The position numbers and the translations under genes are program-made. Below the pieces are notes generated by a model. That model made no database searches. It worked only from the letters and a program-made list of their open reading frames with translations, and was not told where the DNA came from. From Octopus vulgaris (taxonomy: Eukaryota): DNA of 64,000 nt. Positions 1,023 to 62,085 of this stretch are shown here, in pieces. The DNA is taken from contig OX597817.1 of NCBI GenBank assembly GCA_951406725.2, positions 76,198,001 to 76,262,000 of the forward strand, in the 5' to 3' direction. Position 1 is the stretch's first letter, and every line of letters begins with the position of its first letter.

Positions 1023-1060
1023 AGGCGCAGGAGTGGCTGTGTGGTAAGTAGCTTGCTAAC
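1023..1060 (+). mobile_element. 5' part (A box) of tRNA-derived SINE family B, interrupted by two insertions
   Basis: AGGCGCAGGAGTGGCTGTGTGGTAAGTAGCTTGCTAAC matches the start of uninterrupted copies at 9193 and 42373. The continuation resumes at ~5261. Confidence 0.92.
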
Positions 1061-3044
1061 TGCGCATGTGCGAGTCAGTGTTGTGTTTGCTACTGAAGCA
1101 GTGAAGATGTGCTTTTGAAGCCGTCTTGAATTGAAACTTTGGAAGCCCCATGTAAGGTGAGATTCTGTTTTCTGGGTCCAGTGGGAGTTTTTGTTGAGAA
1201 TTATTTTTTACATGCAGGAAGTCCTACTGGATTCAGAAATCTGATTCTGCCGACATGTGGCAGATATATTTTCTCGCTGAGAAAATTTTGGGGGGCGTAT
1301 CCGTCTCCGAATTGTGAAAATTGTATGGTGCTGTGAAGAACTACCAATTTTACACCAATTTTTGTGGAAGTTGTGCGATCCTGGTTCGATTTAGGCCGGG
1401 AGTACCAAATGGCCAAAAGGATTTTGCTGTGTTTTTGACTTTCTTTTTAACTTTATTTGACTTTCTTTTCAACTTTATTTGACTCTCTCCGTTTTTCATT
1501 GTGACATTCTTCGGATTTCCTTTTCTTCTCGTTTTTTAGTTTTATTCTAAATACATTTATTTAAAAAAAAAACAAAAAAAAAACATGGCAACAAAAGAAA
1601 CCACCGCTTTGGAATGGGAGGTCGTCCCACCAAAGCAGTGGATTGAAAGTCTTGAGAAGAGGACGGTGGTCCTACGAACCTATTCTAGGTCGCGTGGAGC
1701 CATTGCCCTCTTCGACAAGAATACTATAGAGAAAGAGTTGGGGGACTACCTGCCAACTATAAAATTTATTTCTCGGGGGAGCAAATTTGCAACGGTCTGG
1801 TTGCTGTTTGGTACCCCCGAGGAAGCTAGCAGATTTGCTAGCGAGCCACTGGAGGGAGAGGAAATTTTGTTCCTCCCCTCGTATTGTGGCAGAAAAGTGA
1901 AAAGAGCCTGGGTGTGTGGGCTGCCCCCGGGCACGGAGGCGGAATGGATCGAAAAGACCATCCGGCGAGGCCTGGGGGATAGCGGACCCAGACTGCTAAG
2001 TGTGAAGGTGGCTCCCGCGGTCGCCTGGCAGGGGTCGAGGGCAACCTTGACCCTGTGGACACCGGTAGCCGTGGGGCAAATGAAATTCCCGGACTTCCTG
2101 AGAATGGCTGGGCACAGGTACCCGGTGATACTCGAGGGTCGCCCCCCCAAGTGTCACCTGTGCCTGAAGCCCGGACATATCAGGAAGAATTGTCCCAGGG
2201 GCCGTAGTGGTGCCCCGGAGCAGAGAGGGGAAAAGGCGCCCGCCGCCCCCTCATTGGAGGGGGAGACGATGGAAGTCGTGGAGGAGGTTGCCTCCACGAA
2301 AAGAAAGAGAAAGGCGAGCAACAATGGTTGCCCGCCAAAGAACGCTCAGGGGGCGAAGGGGGATAGCAATCCCCCGTGTCTGGTGACGGAGTCCCCTGGG
2401 TCAGCAGTCTCCCCCAAAAGAAGGAGGAGAAAAAGGAGAGGTCGGACGACTGACGTTTCTGTGTCGCCGACGGAGCCGCGGGTGGGATGTGTGCCACCCG
2501 CGGACAAGGCTCCGCCAGTGGGAAGTGTGCCACCGACGGAGGAGTGTGAGGTCCCTCCCTGTGAAGAGGAGATGCTTCTCCTCCTTTACCACAAGGGAGA
2601 GAAGGTTGAAAGATTCTTGACTGGCTTGGGTGACCGAGAGCGTAAGGACACGGTCGGCTCAAGGAGTCCGTTATGGCCTCCGCAGGTAGCTGCGGAGAAA
2701 GTAACAGAAGATACTTTGTCAAGGGTCGCAGAGACCTTTGAAAAGAAAGACTTTACCTTTCTCTTTGCAGGCCCCGACTTGTCGTCGCAGAGTTGTCTGC
2801 AGGCGGCAAGACAATTTGCTTCGGGGACCTGACGAGAAGAATTATTGAACATTTTTATGCAATTTGAATCATTGTTTATTAAATGTATTTATTGAAACAT
2901 TGTTTTAGAGAAGCAAAAGTCGGCGGGCGCTTTCGACTTCTCCCATCACCATCTTCATCAACCACCACCATCATCCATTAATGTCCTTGTCCAGCCCGTA
3001 GCTACTACTCTGTGTACTGCCCTAGTGGCAAATTATTTAAAATA
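1061..3044 (+). mobile_element. ORF1-only non-autonomous Tx1/L1-like retroelement, copy 1
   Basis: Perfect 15-bp TSD AAGTAGCTTGCTAAC (1046-1060 and 3045-3059). Single gag-like ORF. Structured 3' end finishing AATA(AA). Homologous to the adjacent copy 2. Confidence 0.85.
1585..2832 (+). CDS. Tx1-type ORF1 / ZCCHC3-like nucleic-acid-binding protein (415 aa)
   Basis: Intact ORF with AAACATGG start. Zinc knuckle EGRPPKCHLCLKPGHIRKNCP (CX2CX4HX4C). RRM-like N-terminal half (VWLLF, AWVCGLPP). Basic NLS-like runs KRKRK and KRRRRKRR. Confidence 0.88.
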   Translation: MATKETTALEWEVVPPKQWIESLEKRTVVLRTYSRSRGAIALFDKNTIEKELGDYLPTIKFISRGSKFATVWLLFGTPEEASRFASEPLEGEEILFLPSYCGRKVKRAWVCGLPPGTEAEWIEKTIRRGLGDSGPRLLSVKVAPAVAWQGSRATLTLWTPVAVGQMKFPDFLRMAGHRYPVILEGRPPKCHLCLKPGHIRKNCPRGRSGAPEQRGEKAPAAPSLEGETMEVVEEVASTKRKRKASNNGCPPKNAQGAKGDSNPPCLVTESPGSAVSPKRRRRKRRGRTTDVSVSPTEPRVGCVPPADKAPPVGSVPPTEECEVPPCEEEMLLLLYHKGEKVERFLTGLGDRERKDTVGSRSPLWPPQVAAEKVTEDTLSRVAETFEKKDFTFLFAGPDLSSQSCLQAARQFASGT

Positions 3045-3046
3045 AA
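2901..3046 (+). other. Conserved structured 3' end of copy 1
   Basis: GAGAAG(2908-2913)/CTTCTC(2937-2942) stem. Loop GCGGGC is complementary to GCCCGT (2994-2999). Terminal TGCC-ctagt-GGCA hairpin, then AATAAA. Conserved in copy 2. Confidence 0.7.
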
Positions 3047-3762
3047 GTAGCTTGCTAACCACACATGCGCAGTTAGTCGGTTGCTTCCTGTTGAGCTAGA
3101 GTGGACGTGAGTAACAAGCTCCTTCCAACTAAAGAAAAAAGACCAAAAACGGAAAGTTGTCGAGGTAAGTGATTTTGTTTATTGTGAGTTGGGCATAATT
3201 TATTGCGTGCCAATTATTATTTCAGTAGGTTGTGTCCAACTCTGAGACAATTTCGCCTGCGCTAGGCGGCTGCCGTTTTTGTGTTCATTGAAAAAAAAAA
3301 AAAAAAGAAAAAACAGTGGAGGGGCGTATCCTCAGAATTCAATACAGTTACTGTTAAAATCACCGTTGGCGGTAGCCAGTGCTGTGTTTGGATTTGTTGA
3401 ATTTATTCCCTTGTCAGAGTACTTCGCAAGAAAAGTATAAAAATAAGCCACTATTGGATTACCTTTCGGACCTTTTTGTGGAGGTTGTGTTGCAGTTGCG
3501 GTGTTCCAGGTTCAACCCAGGCCGGGAGTACCGCAAGGCCAGAATATTTTTGCTGTGTTTTTTCTGTTTATTAACTTTCTTTTGAACTTCATTTACCCCC
3601 CCCCCCCTTTTGTTTTTTCTTTATTGCGACTTTCCGTTAATTTCTTCCCTTCTGTTGTGCTTTCTCCTTTTTGTTTTTTCAAAAATCTATCAAATTTATT
3701 TAGACTTTTGAACTTTTTTCTTCCTGCTTTTGAGTCTAATTTGAATATATTTTTTAAAAAAC

Positions 3763-4950
3763 ATGGCAATGAAAAATAACAAAGTTTTGGAGTGGGAAAT
3801 CATACCACCCAAAAAGTGGTTGAAGGACCGTGAAGATAGGACGGTGGTGTTGAGAACCTACTCCAAGGCACTTGACACCATCGCCCTATTCGAAAAGACG
3901 GCAAATAAGGAGGAGTTGGAGGAGTATTTGCCAACAATTAAATTCATTTCCAGGGGTGTCAAATATGGAACGGTGTGGTTGCTGTTTGACACCCCTGAAG
4001 AGGCTTGCAAATTTGCTAGCGAACCCTTGGAGGGTAAGGAAATCTTATTCCTGCCCACTTACAAAAAAAAGAAATTGATGAAAGCTTGGATCTGCGGACT
4101 GCCACCCGACATAGAACCCGAGTGGATAGAGGAGACTATCCGCCGGGGTCTGGGTGACAGCGAAACTAAGCTCCTCAATGTAAAAGTTCTTCCTGCGGCT
4201 GCTTGGGTTGGCTCGAAAGCAGTTTTGACCCTGTGGACCCAATCAGCCAATCTGGTTTTTCCAGATTTTTTGAAAATGGCCGGGTGCAGGTACCCGGTGA
4301 TGCTTGAGGGTCGCCCCCCTAAGTGTCATCGGTGCTTGGAGTCCGGCCACATAAAGAAGAATTGTCCTCGGGAACAAAATAGGATCCCGGAACAGTTAAG
4401 TAAAACCCCTCTAGAAGAGGGAACGATAACGGCCGAGAAAGCAGAGGACTCCTCAAGCAGAGGCCGAAAGAGGAAGGTGAGCAACAATGGGTGCTCACCA
4501 AAGGATAATAGGGATGAGGAGAGGAGGGCGAATCTTCCAGCCACGGAGGAGACGCACCCTCCCTCAGTTGAAAAGGGAAAAAAAAAGAAAAAGAGGAAGA
4601 AAAACGGGACGTTGCCGGCTGTCAGTGTGGCACCGGAATGTCGCGGAACTACGTCGGTTGGGGTTGTGCCACCGACAAGAGAAGGAATACCGTTGGCGGA
4701 AACTGTGCCGCCAACGAAAGAACTGAATGTATTGGTCCTCTTCTATAGAGGAGGAGAAATTGAAAAAGTGATGGAAGAGCACTACAAGGGAGCACCTTTA
4801 GCCTTCACACTAGGGCTAAAGGAGCTCAATGAAGACTATAACTTGGTCCCGGGCGACGCGAACTCGGAACTTGACTACGTTCTGAGGGAGGCGTGGTTGA
4901 TGGTGGAGGGCGCGGGCACAAGCTATTTCGAGGACGATATGTATTATTAG
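3763..4950 (+). CDS. Tx1-type ORF1 / ZCCHC3-like nucleic-acid-binding protein (395 aa)
   Basis: Intact ORF with knuckle EGRPPKCHRCLESGHIKKNCP. About two-thirds identical to copy 1 over the first ~160 aa by manual count. C-terminus divergent. Confidence 0.88.
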   Translation: MAMKNNKVLEWEIIPPKKWLKDREDRTVVLRTYSKALDTIALFEKTANKEELEEYLPTIKFISRGVKYGTVWLLFDTPEEACKFASEPLEGKEILFLPTYKKKKLMKAWICGLPPDIEPEWIEETIRRGLGDSETKLLNVKVLPAAAWVGSKAVLTLWTQSANLVFPDFLKMAGCRYPVMLEGRPPKCHRCLESGHIKKNCPREQNRIPEQLSKTPLEEGTITAEKAEDSSSRGRKRKVSNNGCSPKDNRDEERRANLPATEETHPPSVEKGKKKKKRKKNGTLPAVSVAPECRGTTSVGVVPPTREGIPLAETVPPTKELNVLVLFYRGGEIEKVMEEHYKGAPLAFTLGLKELNEDYNLVPGDANSELDYVLREAWLMVEGAGTSYFEDDMYY

Positions 4951-5077
4951 TAATGGACTTAAGTCCAAAAATTGAAAAATTGTAAGAGGATTAATACCTC
5001 GTTTTGTATTAATAATGGACTGCTAAGCCCAAAATTGGAAAAATTGTAAGAGGTTTAATACCTCGTTTTGTGTTAAT
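4951..5077 (+). repeat. ~62-bp imperfect tandem duplication in the 3'UTR of copy 2
   Basis: TAATGGACT...AATTGTAAGAGG(A/T)TTAATACCTCGTTTTGT(A/G)TTAA occurs twice. Confidence 0.85.
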
Positions 5078-5094
5078 CTTTTTAAGAAGAACAA

Positions 5095-5248
5095 TGTTTT
5101 AGAGAAGCAAAAGTCGGCGGGCGCTTTCTGTCTTCTCCCATCCTTAACATCTTTCTTTCATTATCATTCACCTCATTAATGTCCTCGTCCAGCCCGCAAA
5201 GCTAACTTAATCTGTGTACTGCCTTTATGGCAAATGTTTTGAAATAAA
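5095..5248 (+). other. Conserved structured 3' end of copy 2
   Basis: Same GAGAAG/CTTCTC stem, GCGGGC/GCCCGC pairing, TGCC-tttat-GGCA hairpin and AATAAA as in copy 1. Confidence 0.7.
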
Positions 5249-5260
5249 GTAGATTGCTAA

Positions 5261-5620
5261 CCAACTACATGGTTCCGGGTTCAGTCCCACTGCGTGACAT
5301 CTTGGGCAAGTGTCTTCTGCTATAGCCCCGGGCCGACCAGTGCCTTGTGAGTGGATATGGTAGACGGAAACTGAAAGAAGCCTGTCGTATATATGTATAT
5401 ATATATAAGTTTGTGTGTCTGTGTTTGTCCCCCTAGCATTGCTTGACAACCGATGCTGGTGTGTTTACGTTCCCGTCTCTTAGCGGTTCGGCAAAGAGGC
5501 CGATAGAATAAGTACTGGGCTTACAAAGAATAAGTCCCGGGGTCGATTTGCTCGACTAAAGGCGGTGCTCCAGCATGGCCGCAGTCAAATGACTGAAACG
5601 AGTAAAAGAGTAAAAGAGTA
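5261..5620 (+). mobile_element. 3' remainder of the interrupted SINE family B copy
   Basis: CCAACTACATGGTTCCGGGTTCAGTCCC (B box), internal TA/TG repeat, and tail GGTGCTCCAGCATGGCCGCAGTCAAATGACTGAAAC followed by (GAGTAAAA)n. Confidence 0.92.
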
Positions 5621-9141: not shown

Positions 9142-9192
9142 ATGAAGTTCATAAGATAATCGTTCATTTCTTTGTCATCTTATATATTATAA

Positions 9193-12892: not shown

Positions 12893-14170
12893 TGTATGTG
12901 TGTGTGTGTGTATGTGTGTGTATATGTGTGTGTCAGAGTTAGCTCATTATTTTTCAATCAATTGTTTAGATAAATGTCGCTTTAAATTGGAGTATATATA
13001 TAATTATGATACATTAATTTTATAGTCATTATTCTGTTTGCATATATATATATATATACAGGTATGCCAAAGAAACAGCCAAAGATGTCGGTATATTTAC
13101 GCCCCCGTAACGTAGCTGTTCGGAAACATAGACGATAGAATAAATGCTTGGATTAAACAAATAAATCCTGGGATTGAACTGCTCGGTAAAGCAATGTCGC
13201 AGTCAAATGATTGAAACAATTGATAGAGTAAATGAATGCAATAAATACAAACACTGCGCTTGCCGGATGGGGTAGCGATTGATTATATGTACGTCTATGT
13301 ACATATTTATATGTCGTGCATTTAATTTCATTAACTCGTTGCATAGAAGTGTTGAAAAGTGTGTGTTTGTAAAAAGATATGAGGCGATAAGCAAATAAAT
13401 GTTCGAGAATCTGTGCATTAGAACAACGTCAATAAGTTAATCACAAGAAACTGTTTATGTGAATGAATGTGGTTTTTTGTAGCTGTGCACAAATATCAAT
13501 AAATATATGGAGAAGAATGTAATAAAAGGTCACAAAACCCCAAGTAAATAATACATGTTACGTAGTTAGAGACTGATAAAACGTTTACGCACTTTGAGAT
13601 CAGAAGAGATCTCACGAAATCCATTTCGTAACACTTGCTAAATTAATTAATTGCTACTAAAAATATAATTTATTTTTAATTAGTTTCATGGATTTAGGCG
13701 AAACACTTCAAATAGTAATGAACAACAGCAATTACTTGATTACAAGCTAAAGAATGTGAAGATTTTGAGATGAAACGCACATCACACTTTCTGAAATTAA
13801 AACCAACACGAAAAATTTTAAGAGTTTTATTAAGGGGGTAACTGCAATGATGACTATATTTTAATGATAGTGTAGTTTAGCTTTTACTCTAATATCCACA
13901 CACACGCATGCGCACGCACACGCATTTACGTATGTATAAATATACATACACAGATGCATAGACAATTATATATACATATGTATATATGTGTGTACATGTA
14001 TATTAATGTACATGTATACACGTGTTATATATCATTAAATACATCGTATTTATATACACATACATGCAAACACGTATATATTTAAATATTTCTACAAGTA
14101 TGTAAATACATGTATTTTTACACATGTGCTATATACATGTGTATGTATGTGTGTATATATAAATATACAT

Positions 14171-14201
<31 letters not shown>

Positions 14202-14202
<1 letters not shown>

Positions 14203-16628
14203 CACCGGACCACAGACTTTATTAGAAGAATCAGGTGGGCGGCCTACCATTTCGATAACCCGGAGAAAAGCAACCCCAACTCTAACCAAGAAGAAATAGC
14301 ACACAGGAAGATATTTAAAAGCAGAAGAAACCCACCCTCTAACTACGCACTGGAAAATTTTGAAAAAGACTTAATCGACCTCATCACCAACATCAACATT
14401 AGTAAACATAAGACCATTTCCAACACCCACTTAAGGAGCCTTAAAGATTTCCTGCATTCACTTAGGAACGATGATAGTCTTATCATACCCGCCGACAAGA
14501 CTGGGAACTGTTATAGGCTAGACTACCAAACCTACAAATCGCTCATCATGAGGGAACTTAGCAAAAAGTATAAAACTACTTCTACGGATAACCTTAAGGA
14601 AATTAACTACAAAATCAAGGAAATTATGAGCAAATTAGACCTCCTGGACAGAACAGAACCTATTAAACCACAAGTACCCAAAATTACTATTAAAGACCAT
14701 AAGAAAGACTTCCCAGATAGTGTAGGAGTACGATTAATCTGTCCGACTAAATCGGATATCGGCAGACTTAGCAAGACTATCCTGGACAAGGTGATCCCAC
14801 ACATCAAACCCCACATCCCACTCCAACTATGGATTAACACCGACGATGTGCTAGAATGGTTTAACACTATCACCAATAGGCCCGACTACTCATTCATCCA
14901 ATTCGACATAGCTAGCTACTACGCCAGTATATCCCCCATCTTACTTAACAAATCCCTTATTTTTGCCCGCAACCTTTCACTCATAGACAGAGAAAAATTG
15001 ACATAATTCTATTAGCTAGAAAAACCATAATAGAATTCGACGGTAGACTCTGGACCAGATCCGATACCCCCGACAATTTCGATGTGGCTATGGGCTCGAG
15101 CGATTCAGCTCAGGTGACTGACTTGGTCGGGGCCTACCTGCTCAAGAAGCTTTTCTCCGAGGTACCGGATCTTCAGGGGGGTCTATACAGAGACGACGCT
15201 CTCTTCATATACCCCACCAACAATAGGAGTAAACTAGAAAGAATTAGGAAAAAGATCAGGCTTTTTTTCAAATCCTTCAATCTTAAACTAGAATTTATGA
15301 CCAATACTAAAATAGTAAACTTCTTAGATGTTACGTTAGATTTGAATAAGCACCTTCACCACCCGTATAGGAAACCCGAAGAAACTACCAAATACATCCA
15401 TACCTCTTCCAACCATCCACCCTGTATAATTAGCACCACGGTCCAAGCCATCTCAGACAGACTGTCAAAACTATCCTCTAATAGAGAAATTTTCAATAAT
15501 CATGCACAACACTACAACCAGGCTCTCTATAGTGCCGGGTATAACCAGAGAATATCATATGTAGACCACCCGGGAGCGTCCGTCGGCCATAAGACTCCCA
15601 ATTATAATCGAACTCAGCACTCAACTCACACTAGCGATAATTCTAATTTAAACTCCAAACAACGTATAGGAAATAGGCGAACTAATAGAATAGCACACAA
15701 TAGTAACCCTCCCGACGAGAGCAATATAGATCCTATTAGGAGAAATAGAAGGGATAATAGCAGATTACGCAAATATATATGGTTCAACATACCTTTCAAC
15801 TTAGCAGTTAGGGGTAAGTTATGTAAGAGAATATTCTCTATAATTTCCAACAACTTCCCACCCACCCACAAGTATAGAAGTATCTTCTCCAACAAAACTA
15901 TTAGGATTTCCTACTCTACCCTGCCCAACATGAGCTGCCTCATAGCTAAACATAACTATATTAATATTAGAACAGCTAGATCAAGAGCAAACCATAGCGA
16001 CCAACAGAACCCCCCTCATCTAGACAGTAGACAATATAACCAGACTGGCAGCCATACTACCCAAACAGTTAGTAATAACACCCGCCAACACAACAGAGGA
16101 AATACTACACCCATCAACAACCAGGAGGATACCAACGCCCCCACTCGTATTGCAACACCTCCGCCTGGGATTAGCAGCACACGACCGAATAATGCAATGC
16201 AATGCAACTGCAGATGTGCATCAAAGTGCCCGCTGCAGGGCGCATGTAGGGCGAAAAACGTAATATACTCATGTGAGGTGAGTACTCAGTTTAACACACT
16301 CACCTATATTGGTTGCTCAACCTCCTGGAAATCCAGATACTACAACCACCGGTCCTCGCTGAGACACAGACATAAGGCTAACAGCACCTCCCTCTCTAAA
16401 AGAATTTGGGAATTAAAAGACAAATGCATAGGCTTCAAACTCAGATGGTCCATCATCGGATCAGCTGCACCTTATTTAAATAATAGAGCAGGATGCCAAC
16501 TATGTTGTGTAGAACTCCTGAACATCCTGAAATTCAAAGACAAACACAATCTTATTAACAAAAGGTCAGAGTTCAAACCATCCTGTATACATAAACTTAT
16601 TAATACTTTCAAATACTACAATGCTTAG
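14202..16628 (+). CDS. PLE reverse transcriptase-GIY-YIG polyprotein (one frameshift at ~14990-14998, 5' end missing)
   Basis: Motifs IIPADKTGN, FIQFDIASYY, FDVAMGSSDSAQVTDLVG, LYRDD, VNFLDVTLDL, CNCRCASKCPLQGAC and NVIY..TYIG..R..H. The second frame is open from ~14997 into ORF 15084-16628. Confidence 0.9.
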
Positions 16629-41902: not shown

Positions 41903-42970
41903 AAGGCGGCAGGTTGGCAGGGCGTTAATACGCTAGGCAAAATACTCAGCGGCATTTCGTCCGTCTTTCCATTCTGAGTTCAAATTCCGCCAAGGTTGCT
42001 TTTGCCTTTCATCCTCTTAGGGTCGATAAAATAAGCAACAGTTGAGCACTGGGGTCGATGTAATCGACTTACCTCTCCACCACAATTGCTGGCCCTGCAC
42101 CAGAATTTGAAACCAGTATTTAATATCTCCATAAGGCGACGAACTTGCTGAATCGTTAACATATCGAGCAAAATGCTTAGCGACATTTCGTCTGTCTCTG
42201 CGTTTTGAGCTAAAATTCTGCCGAGGTCGACTTTACCTTTCATCTTTGTGGCGGTGGGGAGTTGATAACATAAGTATCATCTGATTACTGTAGTCGATGT
42301 AATCGACTTACCCCTTCCCCTGGAGTTGCTGGCCTTGTGTAAAAATTTGAAACCTGTATTTGATATCTCCATAGGCGCAGGAGTGGCTGTCTGGTAAGTA
42401 GCTTGCTAACCAACCACATAGTTCTGGGTTCAGTCCCACTGCGTGGCACCTTGGGCAAGTGTCTTCTACTATAGCCTCGGGCCGACCAAGGCCTTGTGAG
42501 TGGATTTGGTGTGTGTGTGTGTGTGTGTGTGTATATGTTTGTGCGTTTGTGTTTGTCCCCCCAACATCGCTTGACAACCGATGGTGGTGTGTTTACGTCG
42601 CCGTAACCTAGCTGTTCGGCAAAAGAAGACTGATAGAATAAGTACTAGGCTTACAAAAATAAGCCTTGGGGTCGATTTGCTCGACTAAAGGCGGTGCTCC
42701 AGCAAGACTGCAGTGAAATGACTGAAACAAGTAAAAAGAGTAAAGGGTATAAGGCGACGAGCTGGCTGAATCATTAACATGCCGGGCAAAATGCTTAGCG
42801 GCATTTCGACCATCTTTACATTCTAAGTTTAAATTCCGCCGAGGTTGACTTTGCCTTAGGCTCGATAAAAAGCATACCAGCTGAATACTGGGATCGATTA
42901 ATTGACTTACCTCTCCCCCGGAGTTGCCGGCCTTGTTCCAAAATTTGAAGCCAGTATTTAATATCTCCAT
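41903..42970 (+). mobile_element. SINE cluster A-A-B-A, including an uninterrupted family B copy (42373-42750)
   Basis: The B copy shows the empty target GGTAAGTAGCTTGCTAACCAACCACAT. Confidence 0.88.
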
Positions 42971-60079: not shown

Positions 60080-62085
60080 ACCTTCTTGAGTCTATCCACA
60101 GACATAATCACTTTTTCCGTTAAGGTCTATTGTGAATACTTTGTCTGTGCGATTAAGAACCCGGCAATGTCCAGAGTATGGAGCTGTGAGAGGATGCCTC
60201 ACAGCATCGTTGCAGATGAACACATGGGTCCACGTAGAAATGTCCTTAGGTACTGCAGACTTCACGGATTGTGACCGAGTGTTCATAGGTGGCAGATGAC
60301 AGAAGTATGACCGCAAAATCCTTAGAAGCATTATTAGTTGGTGTCAAAATCTGGCCAGGCAATGATAACGGTACCCGATAAAGCAGTTTAGCAGCAGAAA
60401 AGCCCAGGACCGCTTTCACGGAGGACCGACAACCCAAAAGGGTAGGTACTCGATCCATCTTGGGGGATTTGGTGATGCACTAAGAGCTATTTTCAATTGA
60501 CGGTGGAAGCGCTCTACCATCTCGTTAGACTCGGGGTGGTAGCTTGTCGTGTGCTACCAGGAGGTGGGAAAGTTAGCGGAAGAGCTGTGATTCAAATTGT
60601 CGCCTCCGATCAGTGGTGATCTTTGAGGGAACACCGAAACGCGATATCCAGCCTGATATCATAGCGCGAGCGACTGATTCAGCGGAGATGTCCACTAGGG
60701 GAATGGCTTCAAGCCGCCGGGAGAAACGATCTATACAAATTAACATGTACGAAAAACCTGGATGCGATAAAGAGAGAAGCGCATCAAAAACTATGGGCGA
60801 TAACAAGCAGTCTGGGTGATCCAGTAGAAACACCGCAGAGGATCTTTCCATCAGCAGATGGAAGTGGCAGGTATTCAAACTTGCAACAAGAAAAACTGAG
60901 CAGAAGAAACGTCAATCGAATCCAACGATGGTTGGTCTGAAGCAATTGCAACCAAATAAATAGCAGCAGAAGAAAGGGAACATACTGAAAGCTTAGACAA
61001 GAAGGTGTCAGCTGGTATATTTGAAGTTCCAGCTATGTGGCCAATGTCATTGGTGAACTGAGAAATGGAATCCAAGTAGCTGTATGCTCTCGGTGAGTAC
61101 GTATCCGATTTGGATTACAGAGCAAACGTAAGTGGTTTGTGATCTGTGAATATCACGAACTCTCGACCTTCAAGGAGATGATGAAAGTGTGTCATGGTAC
61201 GATAATCAGCTAGCAGTTCCCTGTCAAAGTTACTATACCGCAGTTCTGCTGGCTTCAATTGGTGTGAAAAACATTCCCAAAGTTGAGTCAAGTGGTCAAC
61301 TTGAAGAGACGGTTACAGAAAGCTTGGCGTTCATTTTAGGATGAACGAGTAAGGAAATTTGAGCAAATTCAGTCTTGACAGATTTAAGCGACTGCAACGC
61401 ATGAGGAAAGAGAGAAACAGGAGCGACTATCTTTTTTCTATCTTTCAAGAACTGGGGTAAAGCAAATAGCTTGTCCGCACATATGAGAATGAAATGGCGA
61501 CAGAAATTTATCAACCCTAGGAAATGCCGTAATTGTCTTAATAAGATGGATGGTGCAAGATGCTGAATCGCTCCGCCCTGTGCAGGTGGAGGTCGAATGC
61601 CTTTAGAGTCAATAAGTTGTGCCAGGAATTCTAACGAAGAAACGCCAAATACGCACTTGGTGGGGTTGACCTTGACGTTGTAAGATCGAAGAAGCTGCAA
61701 TAACTGAGATAAATGCTGATGATGATGCTCAGCAGTATTTCTGGCTATCAAAATGTCATCCACATATGCAAAAGACAAAATCCAACCCACGAACAACTTC
61801 CTCAATAAATCGCTGGAAAGTACTGGCAGCATTGTGCAGTCCAAATGGCATGGATAAGAACTCGAACGAGCCAAATGGTGTGGTCAAGGTTGTTTTCGGG
61901 ATGTCTGCCGAGTTCACTGGTATTTGGTGGTATGCGCGTACTAGGTCAATTTTACACAAGACAGTGCATCCATGGAGAGCAGAGGAAAAATCCTGAAGGT
62001 AAGGGATAGCGGTCAGGGATAGTAATGGCATTGAGGCGTCTATAATCACCAACCGGCCGGAAGTTCTGGTTTCTCTTTTCGCCAT
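60080..62085 (-). pseudogene. Decayed Ty3/Gypsy pol (RT, RNase H, integrase)
   Basis: [70 protein letters not shown] and [33 protein letters not shown]. Frameshifts and stops present. Confidence 0.92.

Follow-up and report, generated by a model that had tools for sequence, protein, structure and literature searches.

ORF1-only retroelements stacked at a single base of an abundant SINE in Octopus vulgaris, and a candidate autonomous partner

In the genome of Octopus vulgaris, a putatively tRNA-type short interspersed element (SINE) on contig C4 is interrupted at one base, GGT^AAGTAG, by two retroelements of about 2 kb, termed e1 and e2, that lie head to tail and carry a single open reading frame, ORF1 (Table 1); the same base is occupied elsewhere in the genome by a two-ORF element, A1. 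The window considered here, meaning the whole stretch of DNA that was analysed, comprises 64,000 nt (positions 76,198,001-76,262,000 of the contig), and related copies were sought throughout the 2.8 Gb host genome. The 15-mer AAGTAGCTTGCTAAC stands directly after the SINE head (1046) and again between the two elements (3045), and a copy with one mismatch follows e2 (5247). All told, the window holds five matches with two or fewer mismatches, as against 0.09 expected, the remaining two (9215 and 42396) belonging to empty SINE copies at 9192 and 42371 in which the head runs uninterrupted into the remainder. Downstream of the stack, the SINE remainder is 82% identical to the empty copy at 42371-42751. 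A preliminary description of the locus had noted this splitting of a SINE by two elements between three 15-mers, and the arrangement is plainly visible in the sequence.

Table 1. Features of the stacked insertion, in window coordinates
Feature	Position	Strand	Remarks
Target SINE, 5' head	1023..1045	+	stops at the insertion point GGT^; A-box-like TGGCTGTGTGG at 1034-1044
Junction 1	1046..1060	+	duplicated target (about 10 nt) followed by CTAAC from the element, giving the rebuilt 15-nt target
e1, ORF1-only non-autonomous retroelement	1056..3044	+	start placeable anywhere in 1055-1061
e1 ORF1	1585..2832	+	415 aa
e1 3' terminus	3008..3046	+	about 37 nt in common with A1 (79%)
AATAAA of e1	3041-3046	+	straddles the 3' junction
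Junction 2	3045..3059	+	read as the former e2 5' junction, which would have served e1 as target
e2, ORF1-only non-autonomous retroelement	3055..5246	+	start matched by 136 5' junctions genome-wide
e2 ORF1	3763..4950	+	395 aa in the window; 414 aa in sisters
e2 3' terminus	5210..5248	+	common to A1; AATAAA at 5243-5248 straddles the junction
Junction 3	5247..5261	+	original genomic target; one substitution, C>A at 5253
Target SINE, remainder	5262..5620 (end approximate)	+	B-box-like GGTTCAGTCCC at 5278-5288

Measured from junction to junction, e1 spans 1,999 nt and e2 2,202 nt; identity between the two is 71% in the ORF core and 80% in the last ~150 nt. No poly(A) tail is present at the 3' ends of e1 and e2, where AATAAA straddles the junction. 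Genome-wide, e1 has 40 exact 5' junctions, and the target SINE is represented by at least 67,601 exact empty 31-mers. The A-box and B-box labels mark motifs that we take, by eye, to be such; neither ARAGORN nor Rfam returned a tRNA match for the SINE head. Octopus SINEs were reportedly published by Ohshima and Okada in 1994. Contigs from sequencing runs, three guessed to be RNA and one guessed to be DNA, cover parts of e1 and e2. In its 3' untranslated region (UTR), e2 contains a ~65-nt direct repeat (4950-5080) that also occurs in sister copies.

The e1 ORF1 protein consists of two predicted RNA recognition motifs (RRMs; roughly residues 14-103 and 104-186), a CCHC knuckle (189-204) and a basic, low-complexity tail. 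An AlphaFold2 (AF2) model built from an alignment of 11 sequences reached a predicted local distance difference test (pLDDT) score of 81, compared with 36 for a single-sequence model, and contains RRM matches in both halves, the best of them to La (Z 9.7, root-mean-square deviation 2.4, 82 residues) and that of the second half at Z 7.5. Tandem-RRM proteins were among the Foldseek matches to this model, zf-CCHC was found in all 11 aligned ORF1s at E<=1, one member of the alignment matched Pfam RRM_3, and an Atlas lead from ORF1 pointed to ZCCHC3-type RNA-binding domain (RBD) clusters with a score of 0.90. Pfam searches with the e1 and e2 ORF1s directly gave no RRM and no ZCCHC3 domain, and the sole homologue returned for e1 ORF1 was an uncharacterised Octopus sinensis protein, 66% identical. 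An RRM/CCHC ORF1, as the preliminary description had it, is borne out by the model and the zinc-knuckle matches. Its statement that both ORF1s are intact stands for e1 and has to be qualified for e2, whose window copy lacks 57 nt, in frame, near 4808 when compared with its sister at locus L051.

That these elements are ORF1-only agrees with a search of 122 short full-length copies, none of which retained an ORF2 remnant (tblastn against A1 ORF2, E<0.01); longer, fused relatives of ORF1 were sought and none came up, a negative of little weight. The ORF1 of the ORF1-only elements is under purifying selection. Over the first 205 codons, the ratio of nonsynonymous to synonymous substitution rates (dN/dS) lies between 0.11 and 0.27 in 10 of 10 pairs drawn from five ORF1-only copies of different subfamilies. 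A further ORF1-only family, e3, is 1.5 kb long, and its 408-aa ORF1 is 37-40% identical to autonomous ORF1s as against 26-30% to those of e1 and e2. Since the e3 ORF1 is the nearer to the autonomous proteins, ORF1-only elements have arisen at least twice.

The 5' ends of these families have some features of their own. A TGCGCATGYGC motif, which we take to be NRF1-like, occurs at 1061-1072 and 3062-3071 of the window and at the e3 starts in L120 and L128. Swaps of the 5' UTR between families are frequent (L009, L063, L067, L076, L077, L120 and L170). They combine an e2 start with an e1 body, an e1-like start with an e2 body, and further pairings, and certain of them have been amplified as subfamilies.

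Site specificity was assessed from loci chosen by ORF1 protein similarity, their flanks being ignored in selection; these searches scored 101 of 13,345 candidates for e1 and 105 of 15,311 for e2. All 30 loci from the e1 search (22 separate places) and all 30 e2 loci end at the AAGTAG base. Genome-wide, exact AAGTAG stands directly after 328 of 361 e1/e2-type 3' ends, so the expectation that most copies would sit at GGT^AAGTAG was well founded. Eight of the 33 misses were fetched: four proved to be variant SINE sites, one a SINE with a deletion, and three apparently off-target. A looser junction pattern gave 1,073 matches genome-wide and its reversed control none. A sample of 40 such junctions from contig 1 includes old ORF1-only families with ~45-65% protein identity to e1, short 3' stubs, and four A1-related copies, two of which are only ~70-80% identical to A1 ORF2. 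Old, diverged copies of both lineages thus lie at GGT^AAGTAG, which indicates that both have long used the site and agrees with the earlier suggestion of a long-lived lineage; the further suggestion, that the SINE serves as a safe harbour, is conjecture. Segmental duplication of a single locus is ruled out, as the flanks differ at all loci.

A few individual insertions may be recorded here. Two apparently off-target copies, L192 and L193, nevertheless go on with AAGT where the element stops, a hint that the first bases of the target may be part of the RNA at its 3' end. At L153 (contig C1, 111,116,891-111,116,968) two 3' junctions of opposite orientation lie 52 nt apart in one SINE. L138 is a 106-nt bipartite e2 at the target, made up of 48 nt from the 5' end and 42 nt from the 3' end, and L132, L155 and L162 are 3' stubs of 51-65 nt at the target.

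The two-ORF element A1 is 5.45 kb long and was located on contig 1, as the 3'-most member of an array. Its ORF2, 1,133 aa in intact copies, matches the Pfam domains Exo_endo_phos (an apurinic/apyrimidinic-type endonuclease, APE), RVT_1 (reverse transcriptase, RT) and zf-RVT and contains the motifs GDFN, TDH and YADD; the nearest solved structure is L1 ORF2p (E 8e-67), with R2 at E 6e-20. Both ORFs are open at L109 and L114, and the C-terminal 300 aa of ORF2, used as a query, gave 131 scored matches, many of them 97-100% identical. A1 is young and has intact copies. The 3' ends of all 30 copies fetched lie at the same SINE base as those of e1 and e2, and A1 is present inside the same arrays.

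Judged by its predicted N-terminal APE and its RT domain, A1 is a non-LTR (long terminal repeat) retrotransposon of the L1/Tx1 group. Tx1-clade ORF1 proteins consist of RRMs plus a CCHC knuckle, and L1 ORF1 proteins of a coiled coil, an RRM and a C-terminal domain (CTD). The ORF1s described here have two RRMs and a CCHC knuckle and are homologous to those of A1 and of a (TC)n-targeting family (below), and the multicopy target of A1 (30 of 30) is again a Tx1-type trait. HAL1 elements proper have an L1-clade origin and an L1-type ORF1, neither of which is found here; e1 and e2 are HAL1-like in their workings and are not classed as HAL1. Membership of A1 in the Tx1 clade is well supported, by architecture rather than by an RT tree; no labelled Tx1 reference was among the A1 matches, the nearest named relatives being unannotated Argonauta and Patella proteins.

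A1 shares with e1 and e2 only the last ~37 nt (E 0.009-0.035), and its ORF1 is 28-29% identical to theirs, a distance that rules out e1 and e2 as simple ORF2 deletions of A1. The preliminary description had predicted an autonomous APE-RT partner with the same target, which A1 supplies, and a common 3' stretch of 150 nt, which was an overestimate.

Relatives of A1 are found at other kinds of sites. A sister family, 70% identical over the C-terminal 300 aa of ORF2, lies in (TC)n or CT-rich sequence at the three loci fetched (L117, L118 and L119; contig C29, 28.02-28.26 Mb, and C12, 54.75 Mb), and its ORF2 is open over 1,122-1,138 aa. On C29 three equal-scoring copies of this family fall within 240 kb, and the one examined lies behind a ~95-nt tandem repeat. 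ORF2 relatives in the limpet Patella caerulea have alternating consecutive locus tags (SNE40_003393-003415) and may thus form a tandem array of some dozen related long interspersed elements (LINEs).

The junctions between elements and target can be read against sequence variation in the target itself. About half of the empty SINE targets (the first 100 listed of 67,601) read TTAC rather than TAAC. Of 18 loci at which a full-length element that starts with TAAC occupies a TTAC target, 17 have TAAC in the 5' copy, not counting families with a CTTAC-type or otherwise different start. Young e2 copies begin with (G)CTAAC plus CA, so that the CA following the 15-mer is e2's own start; it is kept at L009, where the target continues GA. 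Target variants at position 7 (L060) and position 10 (L130) are duplicated, and 5'-truncated copies (L132, L149, L152, L155, L156, L162 and L164) have 10-15 nt of target at the 5' side, often ending in microhomology. It follows from the truncated copies and the variants that the duplication is ~10-15 nt and that the distal (G)CTAAC is element-borne and rebuilds the 15-mer. The target-site duplications (TSDs) of 15 and 17 bp in the preliminary description are accordingly rejected, their lengths being confounded by this element-borne mimic. By hand tally, 82 solo A1 5' ends include 18 extra-T junctions of TTT type and 8 of TGTC type, and these look like non-templated additions.

Stacking of one element upon another is far more common than the abundance of empty targets would predict. 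With at least 67,601 perfect empty 31-nt targets, only ~1.6% of SINE targets are occupied. By hand tally, among the matches listed (the first 100 of 104 A1 5' ends and of 136 e2 5' ends, one chance match dropped), an upstream neighbour element was found at 17 of 99 A1 and 18 of 100 e2 5' ends; the downstream neighbour was the SINE for 30 of 30 e2 and 28 of 30 A1 copies. At 18 of 21 loci, full-length e1 lies directly upstream of another element (one solo, one unseen; two copies not counted, being chimeric), and of 59 e1-type 3' ends, 12 run into SINE and 42 (24 loci) into an element, with 5 not viewed. For e3 and a relative, an element lies directly downstream in 6 of 6 cases. Against the 1.6% expectation, both the 17-18% of A1 and e2 and the 18 of 21 loci of e1 give binomial p<1e-12. 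Occupied sites are thus re-hit from 10-fold to several-hundred-fold above chance, and the bias depends on the incoming family.

These counts bear on the proposal of the preliminary description that the two insertions in the window were independent. Fully independent insertion into random SINE copies, with TSDs of 15-17 bp, is compatible with the geometry of sequential target-primed insertion, and 15 nt of target are indeed retained at a minority of loci (L169 and L175). Repeat hits would then be expected at the 1.6% level, in conflict with the tallies above, and the TSD lengths on which the idea drew are confounded by the mimic; we consider it very improbable. Independence would be rescued if nearly all empty SINEs were inaccessible in the germline, which is itself a form of the explanation preferred below.

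The largest arrays comprise seven e1 copies plus A1, six e1 plus e2, and nine mixed elements. Their members represent several haplotypes common to different contigs, some of them mosaic and some locally duplicated, and array neighbours are roughly age-matched. At L127 and on contig C9 (2.665-2.681 Mb) lie at least three head-to-tail A1 copies, every one of which has the extra-T junction. Runs of this general kind might be generated by unequal crossing-over, tandem duplication or mis-assembly, as suggested by five to seven near-identical e1 copies with repeated haplotype pairs (copies 3/5 and 4/6 on C5, 1/2 on C1) and by the many homopolymer frameshifts in array copies. Such events cannot place e1 upstream of unrelated e2, A1 and e3 elements at 18 separate loci, and the nearest relatives of array members often lie on other contigs, so that as a general account they can hardly be credited.

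Variation within the junctions gives some indication of the order of events. A rare GG variant is present in all three junctions at L175, and in 13 of 21 cases the 5' junction had taken over the extra T of the 3' junction, compared with 4 of 35 otherwise (p=1.6e-4, copies within one array not being independent). Variants common to internal and outer junctions imply that the internal junctions are target-derived and the insertions sequential. A stack might instead form in one event by template jumping, the RT switching to a second RNA (often e1) packaged with the first, at its 3' end. The rough age-matching of neighbours, the e1 copies in arrays that are mosaics of several haplotypes, the exchange of 5' UTRs between families (L009, L063, L076, L120, L170) and the end-to-end jumping reported for R2 would all suit such a process. 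Nevertheless, locus-specific variants recur in internal and outermost junctions alike (L175, and the inheritance of extra T), and near-identical e1 haplotypes have different junction types across arrays, which makes jumping an unlikely source of most stacks.

Another way to obtain stacks without repeated targeting would be retrotransposition of read-through multimer RNAs (e1 into e2 or A1) as a whole, the stacks being copies of a few source stacks. A poly(A) signal that straddles the junction makes read-through plausible, the order e1 then e2 is seen at about ten loci, and one contig of run X2 (RNA by guess) starts at 3031 and spans e2, its e1 side being too short for bridging. That said, the elements downstream of e1 include e2 of several 5' subtypes, A1 of two subtypes and e3, the e1 haplotypes being different, and the orders vary (A1-e1-A1, e3-e1-A1, e2-A1, A1-e2). 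An e2 tree, though of little resolution, is star-like and leaves the paired copies ungrouped. A single e1-e2 dimer master is rejected, and since many source stacks would still have to arise de novo, multimer RNAs are a distinctly improbable general explanation.

The observations are probably best explained by sequential insertion that is driven by A1 and rebuilds its own target, with ORF1-only passengers using A1 ORF2 in trans. The A1 endonuclease would nick the bottom strand at one base of the abundant SINE (GGT^AAGTAG), and reverse transcription would be primed at the nicked base. ORF1-only lineages, at least two of separate derivation (e1/e2/eX/eZ, and e3), would borrow A1 ORF2 while retaining their own RNA-binding ORF1 and a ~37-nt A1-like 3' end. 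The top strand would be cut 10-15 nt downstream of the bottom-strand nick. The element RNA would begin with (G)CTAAC, which copies target positions 10/11-15; the cDNA end could therefore anneal to the top strand after cutting, and directly upstream of the new element an intact target would be rebuilt. This rebuilt site would be re-used soon after by further target-primed rounds, giving mixed arrays that grow 5'-ward. In the window e2 would have come first and e1 second, an order that the preliminary description had also proposed and that fits the geometry. As to why rebuilt sites should be re-used, we favour either accessibility or recruitment at the promoter of an element that is young and active, to which the NRF1-like start of e1, e2 and e3 may be relevant, or a further nick made by the same ribonucleoprotein (RNP).

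Several points weigh against this account. The link to A1 comes from a shared site, a shared tail and co-activity, not from descent, and with ORF1 searches that scored about 100 of more than 13,000 candidates each, a rare ORF2-bearing relative of e1 or e2 is possible. About three of the eight AAGTAG misses fetched are off-target, and the 1.6% baseline is a ratio of exact-match counts on both sides. Some homotypic e1 runs have the look of local duplications (copies 3/5 and 4/6 on C5). Young e2 subtypes have e1-type neighbours more often than older ones, 9 of 43 against 3 of 51, a difference that is not significant (p=0.059). Finally, some target variants at positions 7-10 are not duplicated (the window, L105, L134, L147), so that either later mutation or RNA-borne junctions must be invoked.

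A stronger form of the same scheme is possible, though we hold it only tentatively: e1 and e3 may be second-round hyperparasites that seldom use empty SINEs and insert upstream of fresh elements, their 5' mimic being under selection. Either the same ORF2 complex would re-nick the rebuilt site, or the divergent ORF1 of e1 and e3 would steer the RNP to active elements. If so, the 5' mimic would be a selected device that provides self-renewing landing pads, and the arrays would be interstitial counterparts of HeT-A/TART arrays, growing 5'-ward.

Tx1 families target DNA transposons, LTR elements, small nuclear RNA (snRNA) genes and microsatellites and carry SINEU passengers; Xenopus Tx1 inserts in Tx1D, and crocodilian Tx1-Mar in Mariner-N4_AMi (PMC4494074). 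Like A1, Tx1 and Tx1-Mar are APE-RT LINEs that insert into a multicopy transposon and have their target in common with non-autonomous passengers. Tx1-Mar differs in preferring two regions, whereas A1 uses one base of a SINE. Tandem SINEU-3 copies sandwich a TSD, which has been ascribed to sequential insertion (PMC4494074); in contrast to SINEU passengers, those of octopus encode their own ORF1, and here the stacking excess is quantified and family-specific. Among Tx1 families, Kibi and Koshi occupy (TC)n and (TTC)n, respectively (PMC4494074). The sister family of A1 resembles Kibi in its (TC)n target, whereas A1 itself uses a SINE site.

The LINEs listed as encoding ORF1 alone are HAL1, derived from L1, HeT-A of the Jockey clade and Ag-Sponge of CR1, none of them derived from Tx1 (PMC5786205). 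All three resemble e1 and e2 in having a 5' UTR, an ORF1 under purifying selection and a LINE-like 3' end without ORF2; e1 and e2 differ in their ORF1 of two RRMs and CCHC and in their sequence-specific insertion. HeT-A forms mixed head-to-tail arrays, to which its ORF1 protein targets it (PMC5537684). The Drosophila HeT-A/TART/TAHRE arrays are like those of octopus in that ORF1-only and autonomous elements are joined head to tail and grow at one end (PMC5537684). Octopus arrays, by contrast, are interstitial and endonuclease-made, with a rebuilt 15-mer between units and no poly(A), and no host function is evident for them.

The octopus junctions also parallel the model of 5'-junction priming for R1 and R2, in which the bottom-strand cut is fixed, the top-strand cut is flexible, target-like bases at the RNA 5' end anneal, and non-templated bases are added when annealing fails (PMC2718515). 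R1 and R2 reside in ribosomal DNA (rDNA) and have co-transcribed flanks, whereas the target-like start of the octopus elements is heritable and family-specific (CTAAC or CTTAC) and the target is a dispersed SINE. A 2026 repeat annotation of O. vulgaris lists 80 L1-Tx1 families, 13 of them recently active (PMC13282606). A term search of its text found none of the words "target", "nested" and "non-autonomous", and consensus sequences of such families may therefore already be present in libraries without remark. The literature consulted gave no report of a SINE-specific Tx1 or of a Tx1-derived ORF1-only family; an existing Repbase or Dfam entry is possible.

Each ingredient of the system has precedent; the combination and the measured stacking bias were not found in print. 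The strict single-base targets used by non-LTR retrotransposons now include a SINE, and the small set of ORF1-only LINEs now includes a Tx1-type case that arose twice, separately, within one genome. Since there are ~68,000 empty targets of identical sequence and ~1,000 insertions, the choice of target becomes countable. Sequence alone does not fix the landing site of a site-specific LINE; occupied sites are strongly preferred, to a degree that is family-specific. Both the purpose of non-autonomous ORF1 proteins and second-strand priming are made testable, and the intact young A1 copies offer an APE-type, site-specific RT capable of precise full-length insertions without a poly(A) tail.

Other repeats occur in the window, where a whole-window search was dominated by microsatellites. 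The plus strand at 14086-16625 has frames of 306 and 559 aa, the longer with an RT-like YRDD and, by eye, of Penelope type. A 195-aa minus-strand frame at 61299-61883 contains YVDD and resembles, also by eye, a fragment of LTR-retrotransposon RT. Another SINE family has 3' tails (525-596 and 708-780) that resemble the 3' ends of A1 and of the (TC)n-targeting family, a likeness which suggests that this SINE family may itself be mobilised by a Tx1-type LINE.

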